A stretch of 64,000 nucleotides of DNA from the IMG/VR virus record IMGVR_UViG_3300037454_000906, positions 64,001 through 128,000 of that record, one strand, 5' to 3'. The translations under genes and the position numbers were made by a program. The notes below the pieces were generated by a model. That model saw nothing but the letters and a program-made list of their open reading frames with translations, was not told the DNA's origin and ran no database searches. This DNA comes from a virus. Shown here in pieces: positions 1,451-27,285 of the stretch (position 1 is its first letter; each line of letters begins with the position of its first letter).

Positions 1451-2029
1451 CTACTTCGATCTTCGCTCAAAGGCAACTTTGATGTAATCCTCGCCATTGC
1501 CGACATATGTATTGAGAATATCCCAACCTGTGGAACCTACCTTATTCCAAGGCCGGTCGAGGTAGAAACTGCGCATGGCGTTGATTGTTTCCACCACGGA
1601 AGCGCCCTCATCAAACTTTACGGGCATGACCTTGTCATATCCATCGGACACATCCACAAGTTCAAAGCCCAACTGAACACACTTGCCATCGTCAACGATG
1701 TCAATGAGTTCCACCTCGTCCTCGCCCTCTTCATGGAGCTCTGCTGTGTCGGAGAGTACATTGCTGAGCAGGCTATCGGGCATGGGAACGATTTTCAGTT
1801 CTATGCCCCACTTGTTCTCGTCCTTGGCCTCTCCGGTCATTTCGTATTGGTTTTTCGCGTGCATGACATACTTGTAGTCGAAATCAAGGGAACCATCGTC
1901 CTCTTTATGGTGATAAGTTTCCTTTGAAGCGAGGACAACCTCGTCATCCACATCGCGGATGGTGTCAAAAAGGTCGTTCGCCTTGAGAACATCATGGTCG
2001 AACGCCACACCGAAAATCTTGTGCTTCAT
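1451..2029 (-). CDS. hypothetical cassette protein (acidic)
   Basis: ORF track; start MKHKIF after element. Confidence 0.75.
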   Translation of the reverse strand: MKHKIFGVAFDHDVLKANDLFDTIRDVDDEVVLASKETYHHKEDDGSLDFDYKYVMHAKNQYEMTGEAKDENKWGIELKIVPMPDSLLSNVLSDTAELHEEGEDEVELIDIVDDGKCVQLGFELVDVSDGYDKVMPVKFDEGASVVETINAMRSFYLDRPWNKVGSTGWDILNTYVGNGEDYIKVAFERRSK

Positions 2030-2195
2030 TCTTGTAACTCCTTTCGTTGAACGTGCCCACGTTGTGCAGCCGGATCCCACCACCCGCGGGGCACAGGGCA
2101 TACGGTGGCGCCGATTCCAAAAATTAAAAATTAAGTGCCCAAGTGGGCACTAATGGAACATGATGGACTAACAGTCGGAATCTTCTTCGTCCTGG

Positions 2196-2753
2196 CTATT
2201 CGTAGATGCTGTATACGTTATGGTACGTCAGTCCGCCCTGGTCGAGCAGAATCCATCCATCGGGGTCCAAATTGTTCATGTCGCACACACCTTTGAGCGC
2301 GTCATTGGAACTAATCGGGGGCAATTTTCCATCGAACCCTACCCATTGGCATAGGTTATCGAGGAATTTCAACCCGTTGGCTGTCGAAAGGTCGGCACTG
2401 CTGTCGGGGTTAATGAGTTCGAGCTTTCCCTTCTTGGCCAGCTTGCGCTCGGCAGTGTCCGTGACCTCATAGAGGTCGGGAATTATGCTGTTGTGGAAGT
2501 TAGCCCAGTTGCCGTTGATTTGAGTGCGATCGTTATCACAGGAACTGTCATGGTATGTGAGCTGCAAGAGTTCATGGTACTTCGGGTTATAATAGACTGC
2601 GTAGTGGCGGTCAGATACTTCATGTGAATCCGTTACCTTAATACTCTTGACCTCGTCCGGTGTGAACGTGGAAAGAATACTATCCGTCAGTTTTACGCCG
2701 TCCGGCAGGTTGATTGCCACCGTAGCCTTGTAGGTTACTAACAGTCTTTGCAT
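2196..2753 (-). CDS. hypothetical cassette protein
   Basis: ORF track; element upstream. Confidence 0.75.
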   Translation of the reverse strand: MQRLLVTYKATVAINLPDGVKLTDSILSTFTPDEVKSIKVTDSHEVSDRHYAVYYNPKYHELLQLTYHDSSCDNDRTQINGNWANFHNSIIPDLYEVTDTAERKLAKKGKLELINPDSSADLSTANGLKFLDNLCQWVGFDGKLPPISSNDALKGVCDMNNLDPDGWILLDQGGLTYHNVYSIYE

Positions 2754-2804
2754 AATGTCTCCTTTCGTTGAACGTGCCCACGATGTTCCATCGGGTCCCC
2801 CCGA

Positions 2805-3074
2805 TCATGGTGAGGTCCTGTCACGGTCGGACGGCGACCACCATCGGGTGTCCTCAAACGAGGAGCCGTCATTCAGAGAGTTCTCGTTGTCGGATAGATA
2901 GACACGGCAATGGTTTGAAAATTCGCCTATGGTGCGTTCTACCCTGGATACGATACCGCGCACCCGCTTGTCGTCATTATACCCGACCTGCACATCGTCA
3001 CCCACACGGGGTGTCTCGTTGACCTGCACCAAGTAGGAACGGCCACACCAATCTACTATTTCAATATGGAGCAT
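2805..3074 (-). CDS. hypothetical protein
   Basis: Start MLHIEIV with GAGGA RBS, coupled to 3085-3594. Confidence 0.6.
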   Translation of the reverse strand: MLHIEIVDWCGRSYLVQVNETPRVGDDVQVGYNDDKRVRGIVSRVERTIGEFSNHCRVYLSDNENSLNDGSSFEDTRWWSPSDRDRTSP

Positions 3075-3084
3075 GGGTTCCTCC

Positions 3085-3594
3085 TCAGTAATTGAGCATA
3101 TTGCGGAGTTTTTCCGCATTGGATTTTTCAAGTTTTTTCTCGGCAAGTTTGCCCGCCTTGTGCCCTTCAAGCATGGCGACAATGGTCGCGACCGCATGGG
3201 TGAGCGAAGTCTGCTGAATGAACTCAAAGTCAAAGGTAGTGCCGTAAGAGTTCTGCTCAAAGATGTGATGGCTTTCAACCACGTTCCCCTGCATATACTT
3301 GCCAATCTGGTCACCACTGACAATCCCCCAATGGACAAGCACACAAGCGCACTTGATGTAATTGTCGCTTCGTTCGTGGTGATACGTGAAGAATGGGCAT
3401 ATTGAGGTGGCCACGAAGAGGACTGCGACCTCATTTTCGCCCGCCTTGGGCTTCTCGGACATAATGAATTCGGCAATGGCCGATTCGTCGTGAAGTTCCA
3501 CCCCGTAGCGGTTGTCGGGGCCACATGGGCTATAACTGAAGGCAAGCACCCCGTTCATGGAAGTAGGCTTGGCGTTAGCGTAAATGGTCTGCAT
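3085..3594 (-). CDS. hypothetical cassette protein
   Basis: Start MQTIYAN after element. Confidence 0.75.
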   Translation of the reverse strand: MQTIYANAKPTSMNGVLAFSYSPCGPDNRYGVELHDESAIAEFIMSEKPKAGENEVAVLFVATSICPFFTYHHERSDNYIKCACVLVHWGIVSGDQIGKYMQGNVVESHHIFEQNSYGTTFDFEFIQQTSLTHAVATIVAMLEGHKAGKLAEKKLEKSNAEKLRNMLNY

Positions 3595-3670
3595 ATCTGC
3601 TCCTTTCGTTGAACATCCCCACGTTGTCACACCGGGCACCACCGCGCATGGCACGCGGTGTACACGGCAT

Positions 3671-4117
3671 TTACCCATAATGGACGAAGAACGCATCATC
3701 AATGATGTCGCCATACTTTTGCTGCATGGCGGTGTATTCTTCGGTGGGCTTGTAGATATCCCCAAAACTTACGGAGAAATACAGGCCGTCCACCATGTCG
3801 TGGCAGTCCCCCTCGTTGGCCTTGTCGTGATATTCCGGCCAGATGCTGATGTTGGTTTCGTTGGTGAACTTGCCGGAAATCTCGTCCCATAGGGCATTGA
3901 GTGTCTTGTATTCCTGGCGGTCGGTGTCAATGTCGCCCGGATTTTCAAGGCTGAGCGTCTGCGCAAGAACTTCGCGGTCGCACACTTCGTGCTCGGTAAA
4001 CTTGTACCCGTTGAACTTTCTGATGAACTCATTGACAAGATTCTCGTCCCCGACCACCTTGATGAGGTTGTCGGCGCTGATTATGTGGGCACTGTTCGCG
4101 CCATATCCCGTAGCCAT
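3671..4117 (-). CDS. hypothetical protein (acidic)
   Basis: Start MATGYG with GGAGGTG RBS. Confidence 0.7.
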   Translation of the reverse strand: MATGYGANSAHIISADNLIKVVGDENLVNEFIRKFNGYKFTEHEVCDREVLAQTLSLENPGDIDTDRQEYKTLNALWDEISGKFTNETNISIWPEYHDKANEGDCHDMVDGLYFSVSFGDIYKPTEEYTAMQQKYGDIIDDAFFVHYG

Positions 4118-4145
4118 GCGGCACCTCCGTTTTGAAAAATAAATT

Positions 4146-4523
4146 TTACCTTTCGAGCAGGTAACACCCCGCCCCTCCCGTGGCCATGAAGGTCCCCGTG
4201 CCGAGCACCAACGTGGTGCCGTCAGCCGTCCCGTAGGTCTCCGTGAGCCCGTCAGCCGAGTAGGGGACGGTGGCCTCTGTGCACCTCTCGTCACCGGAGT
4301 ACCCGATGCACACCCATGATCGGCTCTCGTACTTCGTTATCTCAACGTGAAACCGCGCTTCCGTGGTCTCACCCATCGGCACATGGTCAAGGCACCCTAT
4401 CCTGGTCACTTTCCCGTAGTCCGTGGAGGAACTTCCCACCACGCGCTCGTCGGGTACCTCAGTGGGCCCCGTGGAACACGAAACGGCCATGAGCAGGATT
4501 GCAAAAATTAAAAGTTTCTTCAT
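4146..4523 (-). CDS. putative lipoprotein
   Basis: MKKLLIFAILLMAVSC signal peptide with lipobox-like Cys. Confidence 0.7.
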   Translation of the reverse strand: MKKLLIFAILLMAVSCSTGPTEVPDERVVGSSSTDYGKVTRIGCLDHVPMGETTEARFHVEITKYESRSWVCIGYSGDERCTEATVPYSADGLTETYGTADGTTLVLGTGTFMATGGAGCYLLER

Positions 4524-7105: not shown

Positions 7106-7393
7106 CCGTTAACTGAAACCTACCTAAATCTACCACTAGGACAGACCTACGTGATTTCCTGCCTTGCCCATTGCTGAGTAGGCCGTAACGGCACTTAATC
7201 AACCGCATCTACGCGATATACCTAATATGCATCAAGCAACACGGCTGACTTGCCTAGTCCTACTCCATTACTGAAGAGCCTTAACACGGTCGGCATATCA
7301 AACTAGGCATTGTTAAATATACATTATTTCCATTAGCATATTTAAGTATATTTAGTTAAATGTTGTTAACATTTTCGTTAACTGCTAACAACC
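7106..7393 (-). mobile_element. non-autonomous IS607-like element (left end + omegaRNA-like right end), copy 1
   Basis: ~288 bp, nearly identical to 24028-24313. GG at both junctions, preceded by TGTG. Right end (AGGAAATCACG...TAGGTTTCAGTTAACGG) homologous to the TnpB element end at 20480-20542. Interrupts a small ORF. Confidence 0.8.
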
Positions 7394-8957: not shown

Positions 8958-9464
8958 CTAGTTCTGTTTAAAGGATAGAATCTTCTCCTTGCCGTCAAGT
9001 AGGGTAACCAAGTCGTTCTGACTTTCGTCAAGGGCATTGCCTTGGTCAAACAGGTACTCGGAGCTAACCCCGTGGTCATAGTCATCGCCGTTGCCGTTGC
9101 CGAAGAACAGCCCATCGGGTATGATGATCAGGTGATAGTCGCAACGCATGTCCACGGCCAACTGCATCTTGTATTCGGCCAACTTGTCCGACAGCGGTCG
9201 GTAGAGCCGTTGGATTTCCCTGCACTTGCTGTGAAAGTCCTGTGAGGTCATGACCGCGGACACGCTGGACTTGACTTCGGCGTCCGTTTGGTGTTGGAGC
9301 AATTCGTCAATGAGTATGCAGGCTGAATCAAGGGTCGCGCCGACAGACTGGTCACCCGCCGACTTCGGGCATTCCTTTGGCCATTCCGTGATGGACTTAT
9401 TCTCCCTGAACATGCGCTTTACGATATTGAGCGCATTGATTTCTTCGTCAGTAAACTTTCGCAT
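8958..9464 (-). CDS. hypothetical cassette protein
   Basis: Start MRKFTDEE after element. Confidence 0.75.
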   Translation of the reverse strand: MRKFTDEEINALNIVKRMFRENKSITEWPKECPKSAGDQSVGATLDSACILIDELLQHQTDAEVKSSVSAVMTSQDFHSKCREIQRLYRPLSDKLAEYKMQLAVDMRCDYHLIIIPDGLFFGNGNGDDYDHGVSSEYLFDQGNALDESQNDLVTLLDGKEKILSFKQN

Positions 9465-18254: not shown

Positions 18255-18510
18255 GAAAAAATCAAAATCAAAACCTGGGGGTCACATTTTGGAAAATGGC
18301 GATCTCCGCTTTGCCCCGATTTCAAAAAATTTACCCGGTAGGGGGGTACGGGGGTTTCCGGCGGCCCTTTGTAAACATTTGTAAACATTTTCCGGGGGTA
18401 ACTGGCCCCAAAAAATCAAAAACTTTTTTAACCCGGTACCGGGTACCCTAAGTTTGAATGAATGATGTCTAATTAACGAAAAAAAATTTTTGGGGGGTGG
18501 GGGTCTGCAT
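18255..18510. other. non-coding region of A/T tracts, G/C tracts, direct repeats and a palindrome (possible terminus or origin)
   Basis: AAAAAATCAAAATCAAAA, TGTAAACATT x2 (~18370-18390), ACCCGGTACCGGGT (~18431), several G4-G6 runs; no convincing ORF. Confidence 0.4.
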
Positions 18511-18551
18511 ATTTTTATGAATAATATAAGCTGTATTATAGATACAGTGGG

Positions 18552-20542
18552 GGTTATCAACAGCTAACCTAAAATCTACCTAAATTTACTCAATTTTACC
18601 GAAATCGGCAAGTATTTTAGTGCATTTTAGGTTGAAAATCGACATAAAATTTTGTACATTGTTATAAACTTGATATATAACGGTTCGATGAATTAGTCGT
18701 GTTCTTCGTCGAGCTATAGTGGAAACCATTTCGATGGCTCGTTTGGAATTGAACACGACAATAAGTTCCTTACGAGCCATTTCTGTATTGTATGAGCAAG
18801 CATTGTTGGACATTGAAGGATCGGTATGAGTCGCAGTTCTCCGCTGCGTTCTATCCTATTCTATTGTCCGACACCAAGCGTGCCGAAATTACCCATCGTG
18901 CGGGGGAAATCCGTTCCGTAAGGAACGACATATCGGAAGTGTTCTTCTCGGATATGCTCGGCTTCCAGGATATGAGCAAGTTCGAGGCCTTTAACTTTTT
19001 CAATCCGACATTCAATACACGCCTATCTGGCCACTACTTGAAGAAGGCTATCGAGGATGTCTGGAAGGCATACCAATTACGGTTCGATGCGATCCGCAGG
19101 AAGATTGAGTTCGTCAAGGTTGAAGAGCTGGTTCCATCCTTTTACAAGATAAACACCCATGGGCATAGGAAAGGCGACCTTAAATCTATTGAAGTTCATA
19201 CCAAGAAGACAGAACTTACCAAAGTGCTGACTTGGCTTGCTCGATACGGCAAGAATGAAACCGTCTATTGGCTTGAATCCGTTATTCCTACCGTAGTAGA
19301 ATCCAAGCAGAAGTTCTATCGAGCTATACTTGATAAGATACGCAAATTTGGGTTTGACCGCCTCATGCGGTTGGCGCGGTCAAGAAGAACATCTGTATTT
19401 GCCGAATACGAGAAGCGTGGCAAGATTACCTTTGAATCGCTTACATTCTCTGGCCGTAGTCGTATCAAGCGTCCTATCGTGGATGCTCGCAGGAACGAGA
19501 CTGGTAAGTTCGATTACTTCATCGAGATTTCCTGGGATTGGAATGACCAAGGCTACCGTGGTGACAGCAAGAACACGCTATGCATGCCGTTCAAGTATAA
19601 CAAGGCATACCACCGTTCGTTGAACCGCTACTGCAACGGAACCGATACATCCTATACGATGGTAGTCCGAGGAAAGGACATCCATGTAGTTCTCGCAAGG
19701 GACGGCTACCGCTATAAGAATACTGACGAGATTACCGAAGAAAATACCGTCGGAATAGATGTCAATTCCAAGCACAACATGTTCGCATTGAGTACCGGTG
19801 AGTTCATCCCGAACGACGATGCCTTGATTGCCGACCTTGAAACCGAGTTGCTCAAGATAGACCGGAAGCAGAAGAACTACAACGTCAAATTCAAGGAAGA
19901 CGAAGAGCATGAAGCGTTCAAGATATCCAAGAAGGACAAGGCTCGCATCGAAGCTATTACATTGAAGCTGAACGAGTCCAACAAGCGAGCTATCGTACTG
20001 CTTTGCCAAGCATTTGCCGCTAAAGGAATCAAGCACATCGCAATGGAGAACCTCGATGGTTTCCAAGGCAGAAGGCTCCATGCTGATGACTCAAAAGGAT
20101 TTAATCTAGGAAGGTTGCATCTAAGGACTGGACTATCCTCGTTGAAGGACGAGTTCATCCATATTGCACCGCATTACGGACTGTCGGTTTCACTTGTGCA
20201 ACCCGAATACACTTCCAAGATGTGCGGTGAGTGCGGTTGCATCGACGACCGGAACCGCCAGACACAAGAAGAATTTTGCTGTGTTGAATGCCATCATGCG
20301 GAAAACGCGGATATTCATTCAGCCAAGAATATTAAAGTCCGTCTTACCTCGACCGTGTTAAGAGGGAACTTGCTCGAAAGGGCAGGGGATAGCGGATATA
20401 GGTACTTCCAGCCAAAGAGCTTGTTCAGGTGGCAAGTAAGGAAGTGCCTAGAAAAATGCCGTTGCGATGGTCTTCTCAAACGGACCATAGGAAATCACGA
20501 AAACCTTACTGTGAGTAGGTTTGAGTAGATTTCAGTCAACGG
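18552..20542 (+). mobile_element. IS607-like TnpB-only element (no TnpA)
   Basis: GTGGG-GG left junction and AAC-GG right junction. ~10-bp direct repeats (TCTACCTAAA-like) at the left end, inverted at the right end. Removal restores an in-frame minus-strand ORF. Confidence 0.75.
18792..20528 (+). CDS. tnpB: TnpB RNA-guided endonuclease (578 aa)
   Basis: RuvC-I GIDVN, RuvC-II AMENL, zinc finger CGECG...CVEC, RuvC-III NADIHSAKNI; catalytic D-E-D intact. Confidence 0.9.
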   Translation: MSKHCWTLKDRYESQFSAAFYPILLSDTKRAEITHRAGEIRSVRNDISEVFFSDMLGFQDMSKFEAFNFFNPTFNTRLSGHYLKKAIEDVWKAYQLRFDAIRRKIEFVKVEELVPSFYKINTHGHRKGDLKSIEVHTKKTELTKVLTWLARYGKNETVYWLESVIPTVVESKQKFYRAILDKIRKFGFDRLMRLARSRRTSVFAEYEKRGKITFESLTFSGRSRIKRPIVDARRNETGKFDYFIEISWDWNDQGYRGDSKNTLCMPFKYNKAYHRSLNRYCNGTDTSYTMVVRGKDIHVVLARDGYRYKNTDEITEENTVGIDVNSKHNMFALSTGEFIPNDDALIADLETELLKIDRKQKNYNVKFKEDEEHEAFKISKKDKARIEAITLKLNESNKRAIVLLCQAFAAKGIKHIAMENLDGFQGRRLHADDSKGFNLGRLHLRTGLSSLKDEFIHIAPHYGLSVSLVQPEYTSKMCGECGCIDDRNRQTQEEFCCVECHHAENADIHSAKNIKVRLTSTVLRGNLLERAGDSGYRYFQPKSLFRWQVRKCLEKCRCDGLLKRTIGNHENLTVSRFE

Positions 20543-20660
20543 TAGCATGCATGTCGTCGGGCACGGTAATCATGTCCCGGAGGAACTTGCACAGTTCAGG
20601 GAAAGTTGTCGGCATGCGCTTGACTAAGTCGGATAACACCGGATTGTATATTTTATCCAT
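20532..20660 (-). pseudogene. 5' part of a small gene interrupted by the TnpB element
   Basis: MDKIYNP...DDMHAT continues in frame as PTVSIIQLILF beyond 18551 once the element is removed. Confidence 0.45.
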
Positions 20661-20668
20661 ATGACGCC

Positions 20669-21169
20669 TCATATGCACTTGACGATTGTACCGTTGTATG
20701 TTCCCAGTTCCATCATGTCCCTGATGGCGGCTTCCCTGGTGTCGGCAAACGATATAACGTACCGTTCGTCGAGGTCGTAAACATCGTAGCCTTTGTTGGT
20801 TTTCCGGATGGCGAACCTGGCGGACTGGATGGAATAGCACGGCTTTCCGGTTTCGGTGAACAGGTCGGCCTCACGGAAAGGTTCCTGGAGCCAGTCGAGC
20901 AGGGCTTTGGCACCGACCATGGCGTCATAGAATGTCTTGAACCTGGCGAAAGCGAGGAACACGAACTGGCTCCGGTGTAATCCGTCGCCCCTGGACCTGG
21001 GGATGGCGGGGTTGTCATCCCTGAGAGCCAGCGAGAAGTACCCGTTGTGCCTGTCGACCACCTTGATTTTAGTGTGCTTGGGGGACCATAGGCGCCAGTT
21101 CTTGTTGGCGTAAAATGGTCGTTGTGAGTCGTGTTTTGCAATGATGTGCTCAATTACGCCGCTCATCAT
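20669..21169 (-). CDS. hypothetical protein
   Basis: ORF track, operon context. Confidence 0.7.
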   Translation of the reverse strand: MMSGVIEHIIAKHDSQRPFYANKNWRLWSPKHTKIKVVDRHNGYFSLALRDDNPAIPRSRGDGLHRSQFVFLAFARFKTFYDAMVGAKALLDWLQEPFREADLFTETGKPCYSIQSARFAIRKTNKGYDVYDLDERYVISFADTREAAIRDMMELGTYNGTIVKCI

Positions 21170-21969
21170 AGTTTGCCCCCGTTGATATTCTTCAAGGCGT
21201 ATTCCGGCCGGTTGAATTCCGCACGGGAAAGCATCTTGTTGAACCGTGTCAGTTCCCTGGTGATGTAGGACTTCATGTTCTTCATGTTGCTCTTCAGTGG
21301 GCCCCTATACGTGTTGGACATGGATACCTGGAAGTTGTGGACGTACACGACGGTAGACAGCGACTCGGAATGCTTGAAACCGAACGTGCCGTCCTTCTTG
21401 ATGGTCGGTTCACCGGTTACCCAGAGATCCATGTATCCTTCCCCCGTGATGTTGAGCCGCATCCCAACACTCTTGTGGTCATCGGTGAAGATGGTACTGA
21501 TACGGTAGTCGCGTTTCGTATCTTGTTCAGATAAAGTGGCGAAGTCCTTAGAGACACATTCGGTGGCCGCCTTGTAGATGAGCTGCAGGATCCAGATCTG
21601 CCATGCAGGGGGCGTGATTGCGGTGTCGGGAGCGGTGAACACCGGGTTCATGTCAGCCATGAACAGGGTGAAGTGCAGGTTGTGGAATGCGTTAAGGAGG
21701 TTCACATCCCACGGTAAGTTCTTCATCTTAAAAACGGCGCGATCCCGGAGGGGCATGCAGTATTTGTATGCCTCGAACGTGGACATGATGGGGGTCATCG
21801 AACCGTTGGCCATGTAGTTGACCAGGTAAGTCGTTGTGCGGGCAGATGCACTGGCGGGGAGGTCACTGTCAGGTTCGAACATTGTGCCCACGTCATCATC
21901 AGACGGGTGCCACTCACCATCCAGGTCACCCCTGGTCCAGTTCAAACGATTTTCTTCGATAAAGTCCAT
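21166..21969 (-). CDS. hypothetical protein
   Basis: ORF track, RBS. Confidence 0.75.
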   Translation of the reverse strand: MDFIEENRLNWTRGDLDGEWHPSDDDVGTMFEPDSDLPASASARTTTYLVNYMANGSMTPIMSTFEAYKYCMPLRDRAVFKMKNLPWDVNLLNAFHNLHFTLFMADMNPVFTAPDTAITPPAWQIWILQLIYKAATECVSKDFATLSEQDTKRDYRISTIFTDDHKSVGMRLNITGEGYMDLWVTGEPTIKKDGTFGFKHSESLSTVVYVHNFQVSMSNTYRGPLKSNMKNMKSYITRELTRFNKMLSRAEFNRPEYALKNINGGKL

Positions 21970-21970
21970 G

Positions 21971-22270
21971 TTATTCCTCCGTGCACTCGATTGTTTCCGG
22001 GTATGGGTAGTTTTCCATGGCGCCGCTTCCGCTATGATGTCCGGGGCGCGGGTGATGGTAGGAGAAGTTATTGCCTATCTTGCACCTGAGCTTCTTCGCC
22101 GGCACCTGTGTCTCGATGCAGACGGCATCGAGGGTTCTCCCCCTGTGATAGAATGCAGAGAGGATTTTTGACTTTGCGGCCTCGCACTGCTGCAATGTTG
22201 GGAATTTGAGGTCGGCGTTGGCCGAGTAGCCGTTGATGGAAAATACGAGAATGAATATTGCTTTTACCAT
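21971..22270 (-). CDS. small protein with signal-peptide-like N-terminus
   Basis: MVKAIFILVFSING hydrophobic N-terminus; Cys pairs. Confidence 0.6.
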   Translation of the reverse strand: MVKAIFILVFSINGYSANADLKFPTLQQCEAAKSKILSAFYHRGRTLDAVCIETQVPAKKLRCKIGNNFSYHHPRPGHHSGSGAMENYPYPETIECTEE

Positions 22271-22274
22271 TTTG

Positions 22275-23420
22275 TTATCCTTCGTACCAGGGTTTGAGAA
22301 CTTCCATTTTCATTTCGCTAAAACGGGGTGAAGCGTTGCGGAATCCCAGATCGTATGTCTTGTCCACGCGCTTTTGGATCATGTCCTTGGCGATGCGTTC
22401 GGCTTCTTCCGGGGTAGTTGCACTGACCTTGACATGCACGTTGGCCACGACCGGGACTGTGAAGCGGTAGTTCACAACAGGATCCGGACGTTCGAACTTG
22501 GAGATGTCTACAAGGTAATCGTCAATCTGGCGCACTTTCGCACGTTCAGGCTTCTTGCTCCATGATTCCATGCTCTTGTACTCTTCCTCAAATTCCATGC
22601 TCTTGTACTCTTCCTCAATCCAGTCCTTTACCACTCCGCGCCCGTATTCGGCCAGTTCGTCATAGGACATCCCGAATAGCTTCTTCGGCACTTCGAGTGT
22701 ACAGGGGCCGTGATGAAAGGGCCATTCGACATCTACCTTGATATAGTCGGAATCTTCTGGGGTACCGAACAGGTAAAACCCGGTAAACACGATGTCATCC
22801 TCGTGATTCCACCTTCCACCGTGGAGAGTATTGAGACGAAGGCGGGACACGACGACGATTGGCCAAATAACCTTATTGGCAAGAGCTTGGTATTCATGTC
22901 GCAGATTGTGGACCTTTTTGTCCTTGAAATCATCTAAATCCTTACCCTCGTACGGCTTGATTGCATCGTTGAACTTGGCGAGGATATCTTTGAGCTTCGC
23001 ATACAATGTGGCGTAGTCGGGAAATTCCTTGCGGTTTTCCTCGATTTGCGTGCGCAACTTTTCCACTTCGGCGCGATAGGAAATCTGTACTCCCTCGATG
23101 GCCTTCAGGATTGGCTTACGGAGATACGGGCTGTACACGCCCTTGGCGCAGCCGCGCTTGTTAGAGCTCGGGGAATACTCCCTGGTTGTCAGCATGGCAT
23201 ACGGGATACGGCAGTCTGGATTATATTCCGGGCCATCGAACCTGACATACCACTTGTCCATGGATAGCCAAGCAATCTGGATTCCATACCAGGTGACGGT
23301 ACCCGTATCCGCATCGCATAGACCAAATTCGTTTACCGAAATTCCGGGGATGTCCCCGATGGTTTCCCTGGCGGTCTTTATCGCCTGTTTTACAATAGGA
23401 TTGTTGCTCTCTGTACTCAT
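22275..23420 (-). CDS. hypothetical protein (contains EEEYKSME tandem duplication)
   Basis: Start MSTESNN downstream of promoter at 23439-23467. Confidence 0.75.
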   Translation of the reverse strand: MSTESNNPIVKQAIKTARETIGDIPGISVNEFGLCDADTGTVTWYGIQIAWLSMDKWYVRFDGPEYNPDCRIPYAMLTTREYSPSSNKRGCAKGVYSPYLRKPILKAIEGVQISYRAEVEKLRTQIEENRKEFPDYATLYAKLKDILAKFNDAIKPYEGKDLDDFKDKKVHNLRHEYQALANKVIWPIVVVSRLRLNTLHGGRWNHEDDIVFTGFYLFGTPEDSDYIKVDVEWPFHHGPCTLEVPKKLFGMSYDELAEYGRGVVKDWIEEEYKSMEFEEEYKSMESWSKKPERAKVRQIDDYLVDISKFERPDPVVNYRFTVPVVANVHVKVSATTPEEAERIAKDMIQKRVDKTYDLGFRNASPRFSEMKMEVLKPWYEG

Positions 23421-23438
23421 ATTAGTTTCCTTGTACAA

Positions 23439-23467
23439 AATGTAGCAAAAAGGGCCCGGTTTGACAA
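23439..23467 (-). promoter_or_regulatory. sigma70-type promoter overlapping the CRISPR-array terminator
   Basis: TTGTCA-N17-TACATT with TGC extension; hairpin GGGTCCGG-TTGTCAAA-CCGGGCCC-TTTTT at 23447-23475. Confidence 0.7.
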
Positions 23468-23514
23468 CCGGACCCATGTGTCAAGATTTGTTGACATGCT
23501 ACGACTAACATTCT

Positions 23515-23991
23515 GTCGTCCCCGGGCTTCAAACTACGCCCGGTTCGAGCAAGATTCTGGAACGCAACGGCTGCTGTCCTCGGGTTTCAAACTACGCCCG
23601 GTTCGAGCTTCAGACCTAAAAATGCCCATTTTAGGGTGCTGTCTCCGGGCTTCAAACTACGCCCGGTTCGAGCAGTCGGAAAAATACATGTACAAACTGC
23701 CTGGCTGTCTCCAAGTTTCAAACTACACCCGGTTCGAGCGCCTCTTAAAATACCCCAGCTGTCCCCGGGTTTCAAACTACACCCGGTTCGAGCTTAACTG
23801 ACAGAACATCTTCTGTCCAGCCTGCTGTCCCTGGGTTTCAAACTACACCCGGTTCGAGCTAACAACGATGTAATAGGTGTCACTTGGGGGCTGTCCCTGG
23901 GTTTCAGACTACACCCGGTTCGAGCGAACTTTTACGGCCTTCTCGCTTTGATGATGCTGTCCCTGGGTTTCAGACTACACCCGGTTCGAGC
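23515..23991 (-). CRISPR. CRISPR array, 8 repeats (36 nt), 7 spacers
   Basis: Repeats start at 23515, 23573, 23638, 23704, 23758, 23824, 23890, 23956. Transcribed consensus GCTCGAACCGGGTGTAGTTTGAAACCCAGGGACAGC. Spacers 22, 29, 30, 18, 30, 30, 30 nt. The repeat at 23515 is most degenerate, so the leader is on the cas side. Confidence 0.95.
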
Positions 23992-24027
23992 ACATTTTGC
24001 ATAAGTCCCCGTTGGCCAAATAGTTAA

Positions 24028-24313
24028 CCGTTAACTGAAACCTACCTAAATCTACCAAGAGATAGACTTATGTGATTTCCTACCTTGCCCATCACTGGGT
24101 AGGCCGTAACGGCACTTAATCAACCGTATCTACGCGATATACCTAATATGCATCAAGCAACACGGCTGACTTGCCTAGTCCTACTCCATTACTGAAGAGC
24201 CTTAACACGGTCGGCATATCAAACTAGGCATTATTAAATATACATTATTTCCATTGCATATTTAAGTATGTTTAGTTAAATTTTATTAACATTTTCATTA
24301 ACAGCTAACAACC
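24028..24313 (-). mobile_element. non-autonomous IS607-like omegaRNA element, copy 2, in the CRISPR leader
   Basis: Near-identical to 7106-7393 with different flanks; TGTG-GG...AAC-GG junctions. Confidence 0.8.
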
Positions 24314-24345
24314 CACATAAAATAATAAAAAACTGGCATTCAAGA

Positions 24346-27030
24346 TTACCTGAACATGAATTTCTGGTTCTTCACACAGCATGCGCTATTCTCGTCGGCA
24401 TACTGGTACATGCCGTACCAGGGAGACTCCGGTACGAATGTGATGAACGTGCGTCCACTGCGGTAGTTCCACCCGTTCATGCGGCATCCTTCGATTCCTG
24501 CAGTCCGTACCTTGGCCTTTGTGACCGTCTTGGGCAAGCCCACCATCGTGTAGTGGTCGGTGAATGACGTGCCCCTCTTGTCAACTGTTCCGAAGAGGAT
24601 CTTTCGCTTGGCGCACATCTTCTCCATAGCCTTGCCCTCTATGGATATGTGGAGAGACTTGATCAACCTGCCGTCGGCCCTGGCAATCGCTCTTAGCTCG
24701 ATGAATTCCCTGGTGGCGGAGCATTTCATCTTCACCGCACCGTTCCTTACGTAAACCTTGTCACATACCCAGAGGTCACTGCAGCGGTCGGCAGCGTTCT
24801 TTATGGTCTTTGCGGTATGGCCCTTGGGGCACGGGAACGTCACGTCAGCGGAATACCCATCTGGGGAAAACGTGATGTCCGGGATGAAGTCCGCGCCTTC
24901 AAACCATCCCTTGGTGATAACTCTAAAGAGACTCTTCACCTTGCGGTCCTTCTCTCCGTTGAAATTGAGGTCATTTTCCATCTTGATGACCTTCAGGCGC
25001 TTCTTGCCGAATTCCGTATCAAGGAAACAGATAGAACGGATGCGTGCCATGTTGCTGTCGATGCGGTTGTCTATGGCATGGCGCTCGTTCAGGAGTGCCG
25101 CGGCTTCCGCCGTTTCCGAGAACTTGCCGGTATGTTTGAGGGACCATTCGGACTGTTTGGCGTAGTATCTCTCGTAGCCGACAATCTGTTCCTTGATCAG
25201 CCTGCGCTGGATGAAGGTGTAATCCACGATTTCGCGCTTCCTGGTGCCGCTATGGTACTTGCTGCGGAGATAAGCGAAGAAGCCGACGAGAGGATCCACG
25301 GGGGTCTTCCACCCGTTCTCCCTGATACCAACGAGTCCATAACGGATGCCAAGTGTCAGCATGAATGCATAGCGGTGAACACTGTCCTTCTTCGGTCGTT
25401 CGTGGACGGCGCGGTACATGACTTCGAGTTCGCCAATGACCGCGTCGATTTCCCTGCGGCACAAGGTGGTGCGGGCAAGTTCCTTCTCGATTATCCCGTT
25501 ATCATGGAACTTCTCGTAATATTCGGCCAGCTCGCCTACCCAGTCGACAACGTCGCCCATGAGGTTTACTGGAATCGACGTGTTGTAAAAGAAAACCGCG
25601 GTATTGAGGTCGATGCCAACCACCGATTCCTTGTCCATCTTGGTCTCGTCGCTAATCTTGATTTCGGTGGATTCCACGCTTCCCGCAACCGATCCCGTGA
25701 ATTCGGCATGTCTAGGGCACTTGCGGAACCCGGTGGGGGAAATAATGTCTTCGGGCATGAAGGCGGACTTGGGCAGGGACACCGTGACCGTGGGCGTTTC
25801 CTTGAGTGCCTTCTCGATGCCGGCGAAATAGGGGAACTTGCCGACCCTGGACTGGGAACGGGTCTTCATGAGGAGCGTAGCGGAAGCACATTCGTCGCCG
25901 GTCACCGGAAGCTGCGGGATAACCAGTTCGGAATTGTAGTATCCGTCCTTGTGCACGTCGAGGTTCACGATGCAGTGGTCCATGGGGACTGCTGTGTTGT
26001 CGGAGAGCTTGACACACCCCATGTTTTCGATGAACACCCGCATCGCCGCACGGTAGGCCTTGTTGAACTTTTCGATGTCCGTTGGCTTTTCAATCTTTAC
26101 CTTCTTGCCACATACCTTGGCGTAGGGGAACGCATCCTCCCCATTCTTGTTCTTCTTGTCCCATATGGCCAGGGACGGCATTCGCTTGTTTAGGTACGAA
26201 TGGGTGTCGGGCCCGACCTGCTCCAGTTGGGCGGCGAGCATCTGAACATTTTCCGGCATGTGTTTCCAGTTGTCGAATTTCCGCTCAGGATCGTCGCCGT
26301 TCCACCCGAGGGACAGCTTGATGGAATTGCGGAACAGCTTGTCGTCGTAACCTTCCCCCACGTTACGGAGCATCTTCGCGCCGACAAAGGCGCGTAGCTT
26401 CCCGTTGACCATCGTGTTCACGATTGCGCCGGATACGAATGCGGAAGCGCAGAACTGCATTTCGTCGGGGTCGATGCCGGCGAGGGCCGCATAGGACTTC
26501 CTCAGCACGGATTCGACATCGCTGGTAGTGACGCCGAAAAGTTTCCGGTAATAACCGCTGGGGCTGAACAGGGAATACGAGAGGTATGCCCCCTGGCGCA
26601 GGTGGGTGACCGGGATCTCGATATCCCTGCCACGGATCTTGGCCACATGGCATTCCTTTCCCCTGGTCTTTCCGATAATGCGCCCATCGGACATTACGAC
26701 ATCGAAGTTGTTCTTGTATTCGTTGAGTGCCTGGTTACGGAGGTCATACAGGTCCCAGATGTAGAACTTTTCGTACCGCCCGTCCTTGAGCCTGATGTCG
26801 ATCGTATCAAAAAAGTGCTTGCCGATTGTTTCCACCGCAAACTTTGCAGCGGATACAGCCGCCTTCGATAGGTTGCTTATCCTCGTGGCATCGGTTTCAT
26901 TCATTGCGGCAATTTCGCACTTGTAGCCCCGAGTCTTCTTGTTTGCTTCGGGCGCGAAGGTGGAATAGGTGATTCCCCTATTCACACGGACCGTCGGTTC
27001 TATTTTCGGTTTACTGCGTTTCATTTTCAC
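24346..27030 (-). CDS. cas12: type V CRISPR effector, Cas-lambda/Cas12L-like (894 aa)
   Basis: RuvC-I VVGIDLN, RuvC-II KMENDL, RuvC-III YADENSA; adjacent co-oriented array; YYAKQSEW, IKSLH, GTSFTDH and KAKVR motifs resemble Cas-lambda as recalled; no cas1/cas2 in window. Confidence 0.8.
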   Translation of the reverse strand: MKMKRSKPKIEPTVRVNRGITYSTFAPEANKKTRGYKCEIAAMNETDATRISNLSKAAVSAAKFAVETIGKHFFDTIDIRLKDGRYEKFYIWDLYDLRNQALNEYKNNFDVVMSDGRIIGKTRGKECHVAKIRGRDIEIPVTHLRQGAYLSYSLFSPSGYYRKLFGVTTSDVESVLRKSYAALAGIDPDEMQFCASAFVSGAIVNTMVNGKLRAFVGAKMLRNVGEGYDDKLFRNSIKLSLGWNGDDPERKFDNWKHMPENVQMLAAQLEQVGPDTHSYLNKRMPSLAIWDKKNKNGEDAFPYAKVCGKKVKIEKPTDIEKFNKAYRAAMRVFIENMGCVKLSDNTAVPMDHCIVNLDVHKDGYYNSELVIPQLPVTGDECASATLLMKTRSQSRVGKFPYFAGIEKALKETPTVTVSLPKSAFMPEDIISPTGFRKCPRHAEFTGSVAGSVESTEIKISDETKMDKESVVGIDLNTAVFFYNTSIPVNLMGDVVDWVGELAEYYEKFHDNGIIEKELARTTLCRREIDAVIGELEVMYRAVHERPKKDSVHRYAFMLTLGIRYGLVGIRENGWKTPVDPLVGFFAYLRSKYHSGTRKREIVDYTFIQRRLIKEQIVGYERYYAKQSEWSLKHTGKFSETAEAAALLNERHAIDNRIDSNMARIRSICFLDTEFGKKRLKVIKMENDLNFNGEKDRKVKSLFRVITKGWFEGADFIPDITFSPDGYSADVTFPCPKGHTAKTIKNAADRCSDLWVCDKVYVRNGAVKMKCSATREFIELRAIARADGRLIKSLHISIEGKAMEKMCAKRKILFGTVDKRGTSFTDHYTMVGLPKTVTKAKVRTAGIEGCRMNGWNYRSGRTFITFVPESPWYGMYQYADENSACCVKNQKFMFR

Positions 27031-27036
27031 TCTCGT

Positions 27037-27285
27037 TTATTGAAATTTCCTTCCGAACATTGAGATACCATGGGCTTCCCAGTCGCACAGTTGCAATGGG
27101 ATCGGGTTGTCTTTTACAGCGTCATCCCCATACTGCTTACGAAGAGCTTCGCGAGCATCATCCGGAAGGGTGGAAATATCCCGAAAATAGAAATAGACGG
27201 TCACCGTGTTAGAGTCCTCCCAGTATTTCTTCGGGAAGGGCCTCTTGAACACAGCGAACCATATACGTTTAGATGACTCAGCCAT
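27037..27285 (-). CDS. hypothetical protein
   Basis: Start MAESSK; directly upstream of cas12. Confidence 0.65.
   Translation of the reverse strand: MAESSKRIWFAVFKRPFPKKYWEDSNTVTVYFYFRDISTLPDDAREALRKQYGDDAVKDNPIPLQLCDWEAHGISMFGRKFQ

Follow-up and report, generated by a model that had tools for sequence, protein, structure and literature searches.

Organization of the locus

The stretch of DNA analysed here (the window, 64,000 nucleotides) corresponds to positions 64001-128000 of a viral record of 253,117 bp, rated 99% complete, and it has been found in sequencing runs from bovine and sheep gut metagenomes; the replicon that hosts the mini-element described below is a rumen jumbo phage of 253 kb. 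On the minus strand, a gene for a Cas12-like protein is followed by 34 nt of leader, a 284-bp insert, a further 36 nt of leader, a CRISPR array and a terminator-like hairpin (Table 1). A megablast search of positions 18300-27100 against the phage GenBank collection returned zero matches.

Table 1. Features of the Cas12-like locus and related elements in the window
Feature	Position in window	Strand	Basis
Cas12-like (type V) effector gene, 894 aa	24346..27030	-	Family profile against PDB, PF07282 in relatives
Upstream remnant of the leader, 34 nt, with the TGGG target/TAM at its end (24315-24312)	24312..24345	-	Empty alleles
Left-end module of the mini-element, AT-rich, without ORF	24219..24311	-	Common to other copies
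omegaRNA-like scaffold of the mini-element, ending ...TTAACGG at the right end	24028..24218	-	Covariance model
36-nt leader remnant, presumed omegaRNA guide (TTAACTATTTGGCCAACGGGG...)	23992..24027	-	Follows the right end on its 3' side
CRISPR array (eight repeats, each 36 nt; seven spacers, A-G)	23515..23991	-	
Terminator-like hairpin and T-run past the last repeat	23452..23475	-	Kept in L011 and L037
TnpB-only element, ~2.0 kb; tnpB ORF 18792-20528 (578 aa); omegaRNA module 20345-20543	18554..20542	+	
Mini-element copy B, 94% identical	7106..7391	-	Covariance model, 72.5 bits

Searched alone, the 894-aa protein matched nothing in Pfam, the PDB or PADLOC, and no PDB match by sequence related it to Cas-lambda; GIDLN, MEND and ADENS motifs are visible in its translation. 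An exhaustive HMMER search yielded just 12 representative relatives, which came from protein collections (the viral contigs contained zero), and the close relatives form two clusters of 97% and 89% identity. A profile of 11 family members matches the RuvC/TNB region of Cas12f, TnpB, Cas12m and Cas12p in the PDB (E 8e-8), and nine of the 11 match PF07282. Given these matches, which place a RuvC/TNB region at the C terminus, and the adjoining co-oriented and evolving array, the protein is best regarded as a rare type V effector. The gene ends in TAA (24346-24348), where all 10 relatives that were read have TGA. In the relative L040 (positions 1501-4172), the gene is called as two ORFs of 642 and 234 aa beside an intact array, and this effector may be broken.

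The direction of the array is set by its degenerate last repeat, by the terminator on the minus strand (23475-23452) and by the spacer gains of relatives at the 23991 end. Read from leader to trailer, the spacers are A B C D E F G in the window, H I J A B and others in L011, S T B C D E F G in L037 and U B C V F G in L038 and L039. The arrays are thus mosaics, with A and B shared with L011, whose older spacers all differ, and B-G shared with L037, a pattern that points to recombination between arrays of co-circulating phages. Every spacer of the window also occurs in an element-free relative, leaving the filled allele with zero private spacers; L011, L037 and L038-L040 each carry one to three private spacers next to the leader. 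The phage encodes no Cas1, and the 41 spacers of four arrays include none directed against the element, the TnpB gene or the genome to which the window belongs. The 400-aa gene next to the array contains a perfect 27-nt tandem duplication (window 22565-22618).

A polymorphic insertion in the CRISPR leader

Comparison of filled with empty alleles defines the inserted DNA as 284 bp (24028-24311, minus strand), with 4 nt (GGTT) of ambiguity in its placement. The first-pass annotation had described a 286-bp element at this position; the element itself stands, and only its length changes. It also correctly placed the right end ~36 nt ahead of repeat 1 (the gap, 23992-24027, is exactly 36 nt) and recognized that the insert, which begins 34 nt past the stop codon of the Cas12-like gene, has the orientation of that gene and of the array, all three lying on the minus strand.

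When the leaders of ten relatives were read beside that of the window, the insert proved to be absent from 10 of the 11 assembled loci. The empty site predicted by the first reading, TATGTGGG|TTAACTATTTGG, is present exactly in L011 and L038-L040, whose leaders read ...TTTTATGTGGG|TTAACTATTTGG..., as well as in sequencing run X3; written with its 4-nt GGTT overlap, the empty site is TGTGGGTTAAC. In all of these alleles the 34-nt leader remnant (24312-24345) runs directly into the 36-nt remnant (23992-24027). Run X3 consists of DNA from another study, in which a 390-nt contig joins position 24025 to 24310 with flanks ~99% identical to the window, and it also contains 23400-23919 of the same array; the filled junctions are present in run X1, which is probably the source sample. 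The remaining leaders are likewise without the insert and differ at the site, reading TGTTGG|TTAAC in L037 and TGTG-TTTAAC, a variant without GGG, in L010, L041 and L043-L045. A scan of metagenomes with leader patterns recovered one empty locus, L037, and viral contigs, searched with DNA patterns of both leader forms, filled and empty, gave nothing.

Variation in these otherwise conserved leaders falls on the TGGG target/TAM; the sites are at 2470-2490 (minus strand) in L037, at 8700-8720 in L010 and immediately past the cas12 stop codon in L041 and L043-L045. In L037 the site reads TTGG, followed by an identical downstream target, and the whole 89% clade has G-TT. Such altered leaders might escape insertion or cutting by TnpB, or the changes could have arisen by chance.

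The insert belongs to a TnpB element family

The TnpB of 578 aa encoded on the opposite strand (18792-20528) matches PF07282, Cas12f/TnpB entries in the PDB and Cas12f/Cas12u in PADLOC, and its element is bounded by GGG|TTATC... on the left and ...CAACGG|T on the right. A search for its family gave 796 matches, of which more than 120 reach at least 81% identity and many lie on contigs of 100-450 kb; this IS607-like TnpB element family is widespread in rumen jumbo phages. As first noticed from the letters of the sequence, the right end of the insert is homologous to the 3' end of the TnpB element: positions 20488-20543 (plus strand) align with 24027-24082 (minus strand) over 56 nt at 75% identity, and the conserved blocks CCGACCGTGTTAAG, GCCGTT and TAGGAAATCAC carry the homology across ~200 nt.

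Two further copies of the mini-element with sharp ends, at window 7106-7391 (94% identity) and genome 46515-46804 (98%), place this homology far beyond chance. Six additional copies reside on other viral contigs (87-98% identity), four of which also encode the 578-aa TnpB. The left-end module is common to copies A, B and C of the genome and to L013-L017; gene calls around copies B and C are ambiguous as to whether a gene is interrupted. In L012 the left part differs: this locus (9100-9439) holds a variant mini-element in which the omegaRNA module and right end are kept (90%) and the left 67 nt are unrelated and richer in GC. It was considered as a candidate parent element and set aside, as it is a mini-element with a different left part and without TnpB. 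The possibility that the mini-element arose by deletion from the neighbouring TnpB copy was likewise rejected, since the omegaRNA modules of the two are only ~65-75% identical and, among 17 TnpB loci, no 3' end comes closer than 77% to the mini-element over the right-end stretch of 54-57 nt aligned by BLAST.

The relationship of the two modules is most apparent at the level of RNA structure. A covariance model built exclusively from 15 TnpB-linked 3' ends of the 578-aa TnpB family matches the leader copy at 24027-24218 (minus strand) over its entire length (model positions 1-199 of 199; 70.7 bits, E 5e-19), establishing that the insert derives from the TnpB element family, lacks a protein gene and retains the omegaRNA module, as had been suspected. 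Every mini-element is matched full-length at 66-74 bits (E about 1e-19), the resident TnpB module scores 224 bits, and a search of the whole genome returned exactly four modules, of which one is linked to TnpB and the other three are orphans. Rfam, searched at gathering and at permissive thresholds, holds no family for either module, RAGATH-18 included. In the alignment fitted to the model, which itself leans towards structure, 97.2% of cells are paired, against ~40% in controls with slid partners, and 37 of 59 pairs still pair through double (compensatory) changes; RNAalifold on an independent MAFFT alignment found compensatory changes in 14 of 27 pairs. These include pairs of the long-range helix GCCGTT[G/A] : [C/T]AACGGT, which closes the scaffold at the right end. 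Folds of single sequences agree in the order of their helices, with MFE z-scores of -3.9 (the leader copy of the mini-element) and -3.5. Together, the model and the covariation indicate that the mini-element lineage retained the fold as its sequence drifted to ~65-75% identity with the TnpB-linked RNAs, and in both secondary structure and right-end position its scaffold groups with the omegaRNAs of this TnpB family. Between the two lineages, nine helices are kept via double changes and the single-stranded blocks are invariant, which argues for long selection on an RNA rather than on DNA ends alone.

The element is therefore a transposon of 284 bp without a protein gene, whose sole content is a TnpB-type guide-RNA scaffold, and its insertion in the leader is real, rare and recent. 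The scaffold would presumably be compatible with use in trans by the TnpB at 18792. Because it is ~65-75% identical to the resident's and no sampled 3' end exceeds 77% over the aligned right-end stretch, the true partner nuclease could also belong to another, unsampled lineage. Elsewhere in the family, on L036, one TnpB gene is followed by two full-length modules (313-514, 222 bits, and 798-999, 219 bits) at a spacing of 485 nt, which may represent a TnpB element with an orphan guide module in tandem behind it.

IS607-like junctions and a candidate transposase

The left junctions of the mini-elements read TGGG|TT and those of full-length TnpB elements NGGG|TT, and right ends read ...AACGG|T. 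A GG core is present at both junctions of the three mini-elements, of the resident TnpB element and of about 10 other loci. The target sites of the three mini-elements are TGTGGG, CCTGGG and TGTGGG, and comparison of filled with empty alleles reveals a clean insertion, without target-site duplication and without terminal inverted repeats. The TnpA of IS607 is reported to use a strict GG core and a 5'-TGGG-3' target, the latter serving also as the TAM of its TnpB (10.1101/2023.11.20.567912). By their sequence, the junctions described here fit the IS607 type in core, target and lack of duplication.

An IS607-type TnpA of 244 aa with MerR-type HTH and resolvase domains is encoded in the same phage (genome 148773-149507), and this serine TnpA is a candidate for mobilizing the mini-element. 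It is adjacent to no copy, the ends of its region display no similarity to the mini-element, and no TnpA was found beside the element at any of 17 TnpB loci. The locus in which it lies (L008, genome 147303-149507) also contains a 492-aa ORF with weak GIY-YIG and I-HmuI NUMOD matches and is, as judged from these matches, a transposase next to a homing-endonuclease-like gene. A separate IS200/IS605 pair resides at genome 185045-186930 (L009), where the gene for a Y1 TnpA (136 aa) diverges from one for a classical TnpB (386+ aa), and two more TnpB-like ORFs of ~435 aa each are located at genome 28.6 kb and 18.5 kb. Counting the 578-aa protein, this brings the TnpB-type genes of the phage to at least four.

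Transcription and the CRISPR array

The first-pass annotation raised the prospect that the insert drives the array. A scan with consensus patterns found no sigma-70-like promoter on the minus strand of leader and element, which speaks against it; a TTAAAT-N17/18-TATATT arrangement just upstream of the omegaRNA module (~24232-24260) was noticed by eye only, and no promoter is claimed. The element also has no terminator-like site on the minus strand. As it is co-oriented with the array, read-through into the array is possible, and the array probably stays expressed. Whether spacer uptake suffers is a related matter that had been raised at the outset together with a comparison of leaders and spacers among relatives. 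The related leaders proved to be empty, as anticipated; the spacers are compatible with stalled uptake after insertion and equally with a very recent insertion, and they represent a single filled allele.

Two RNA libraries contain related sequences in the form of contigs, whose strand and ends are not readable and which may include carried-over DNA. In X14, contigs match the array exactly (23700-23991), and others cover the omegaRNA module of copy B with 63 nt of its flank. X21 yielded several omegaRNA-module contigs and also a contig of 268 nt, from another study than the window, in which a TnpB-type rather than a mini-type right end abuts the same leader nucleotide (window 23974-24045); its loose end, reverse-complemented to the minus strand, is TCACGAAAAACTTACCATGAGTAAGTTTGA, and it continues into leader, repeat and spacer. 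Its depth is 55.6, compared with 5.3 for a cas12 contig, although contig depth is not expression. Some of the contigs extend hundreds of nucleotides beyond the right end. Contigs are missing from cas12 in X14 and from 24216-24470 in X21, gaps that carry no conclusion because assembly accounts for contig ends at repeats. The bridging contig, a single one, suggests occupation of this leader site by a second family member in another phage, and it gives a hint, at the level of contigs, that such omegaRNA-leader-repeat junctions occur in RNA. That omegaRNA and array lie on one transcript in the window is plausible, with weak hints from these RNA-library contigs.

A model for retention in trans, and its alternatives

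We consider it probable that the insert is a non-autonomous, protein-less member of the IS607-like TnpB family that integrated recently at a TGGG and takes its guide from the leader flank, with TnpB supplied in trans. Integration would have occurred within the 70-bp stretch between the Cas12-like gene and the array. The selected omegaRNA scaffold would have been kept, with the 36-nt leader remnant at its 3' flank as the guide; the flank TTAACTATTTGGCCAACGGGG... is the most likely guide by analogy with TnpB elements, whose guide is the right flank. The scaffold would be transcribed either by read-through of the cas12 operon or from within the element, and the 578-aa TnpB of the phage, whose gene is 3.5 kb distant, would then take it up in trans. 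The complex would cut element-free leader alleles (TGGG followed by TTAACTATTTGG...), whether these arise by excision or arrive in co-infecting relatives, and recombinational repair from a filled copy would retain or spread the element. L038-L040 and X3 contain TGGG followed by a target identical to the guide (L011 has one mismatch), such that TnpB acting in trans would be expected to cut these alleles and favour repair from the filled copy. The insertion and its polymorphism, the copies, the IS607-type junctions, the conserved fold and the match of TAM and target in empty alleles are observed; transcription, loading into TnpB, cleavage, homing and movement by a serine TnpA are what we infer.

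Several other readings deserve to be weighed against this model. The insert could be an inert, MITE-like passenger moved by the serine TnpA, its RNA unused by any nuclease and its leader position without consequence. That only one of the 11 assembled loci carries it and that no TnpB 3' end exceeds 77% over the aligned right-end stretch would suit such a passenger, yet its ends alone should not have preserved nine helices through double changes around invariant single-stranded blocks; IS607 ends reportedly need just 40-60 bp each (10.1101/2023.11.20.567912), and omegaRNA-module contigs are present in RNA libraries X14 and X21. We regard this reading as unlikely. A different consequence would follow if the insert altered CRISPR function, either by supplying promoter or processing signals for one transcript of omegaRNA, leader and crRNAs that would serve both nucleases or by separating the leader from repeat 1 and stalling uptake. 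The co-orientation of element and array with no intervening terminator-like site on the minus strand, the X21 contig that bridges omegaRNA 3' end, leader, repeat and spacer, the array A-G devoid of private spacers where L011, L037 and L038-L040 have one to three, and the lack of Cas1 all agree with such an effect. However, the bridging contig derives from a relative whose right end is of the TnpB type, unlike that of the mini-element, and its depth is no measure of expression, the 36 nt adjoining repeat 1 are untouched, the spacer comparison involves one filled allele, and the element has no consensus promoter on the minus strand, leaving altered CRISPR function a distinctly doubtful explanation.

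The placement of a highly structured RNA between a cas gene and its array recalls many type V tracrRNAs, and the first reading had named fixation of the same sequence in all homologous loci as a sign of a tracr-like role. Neither attribute of a tracrRNA, an anti-repeat or conservation with the cas locus, was found: the insert is absent from L010, L011, L037-L041 and L043-L045 as well as from run X3, complementarity of the intergenic region to the repeat never exceeds 8 nt, and identical copies reside at two unrelated places in the genome. The empty alleles and the want of any longer match to the repeat lead us to reject a scaffold RNA of the Cas12-like system itself, to which we assign next to no probability. 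The element is not part of the CRISPR system, and its leader position is a rare, recent polymorphism rather than a conserved design.

Beyond the model of retention in trans, it is enticing to speculate that the leader site is a battleground of RNA-guided gene drives among co-infecting rumen jumbo phages, in which two family members (the mini-element here and the TnpB-type right end of run X21) occupy a single nucleotide position in different phages, the omegaRNA is produced within the cas12-array transcript, TnpB and the Cas12-like effector are thereby armed by a common primary RNA, and alleles without a TAM (TTGG in L037, G-TT in the 89% clade) represent resistance. We hold this extension to be improbable as a whole. 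If true, the locus would offer a natural snapshot of an omegaRNA scaffold physically coupling to a CRISPR array, the proposed first step towards type V systems.

Relation to known systems and significance

The elements described here resemble the IS607-family TnpB elements CboIStron (10.1101/2023.11.20.567912) and ISFba1 (PMC11061315) in the GG core at both junctions, the TGGG target at the TAM position, the absence of terminal inverted repeats and of target duplication, the overlap of the guide scaffold with the 3' end of tnpB and the origin of the guide in the right flank. They differ in the length of TnpB (578 aa versus about 390-410 aa), in the absence of TnpA from the element, in an RNA that matches no Rfam family and in their host, a 253-kb phage, and the leader copy is devoid of a protein gene. 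Protein-less derivatives are known from the IS200/IS605 family, where PATE-like elements encode omegaRNAs for use in trans (Meers et al., 10.1101/2023.03.14.532601). These are likewise short and non-autonomous, retain both ends and the omegaRNA, and occur in several copies per genome, but they are moved by Y1 TnpA via hairpin ends, whereas the junctions here are IS607-like. The literature searched reports no PATE-like element inside a CRISPR leader. Protein-less omegaRNA elements as such are thus already known, and the present one is an IS607-like, phage-borne and guide-RNA-only example.

A TnpB-type scaffold RNA also lies directly upstream of a phage CRISPR array in the Cas12r-CRISPR system of Thermus Lalka phages, whose effector is of TnpB size (10.64898/2026.04.20.719267). 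In that system scaffold, array and nuclease form one conserved unit; in the rumen phage the array belongs to another, larger effector, and the scaffold is a rare, recent insertion separated from repeat 1 by a 36-nt non-repeat flank. The latter arrangement calls for caution in annotation: a structured RNA located between the cas gene and the array of a type V system need not be a tracrRNA. TranC systems, said to be TnpB-to-CRISPR intermediates, reportedly also join scaffold, array and nuclease in one conserved unit.

For the IS607-like family with its unusually long TnpB, these findings mean that guide-RNA-only derivatives exist. Retention and homing driven by TnpB have so far been demonstrated mainly for bacterial chromosomes and plasmids. 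The rumen jumbo phages offer matched natural alleles of one site (a filled form and two empty forms, one with the TAM intact and one with it changed), and a single 253-kb genome brings together the nuclease, a candidate transposase and three orphan guide RNAs, such that TnpB-driven retention and homing become testable in a phage population.
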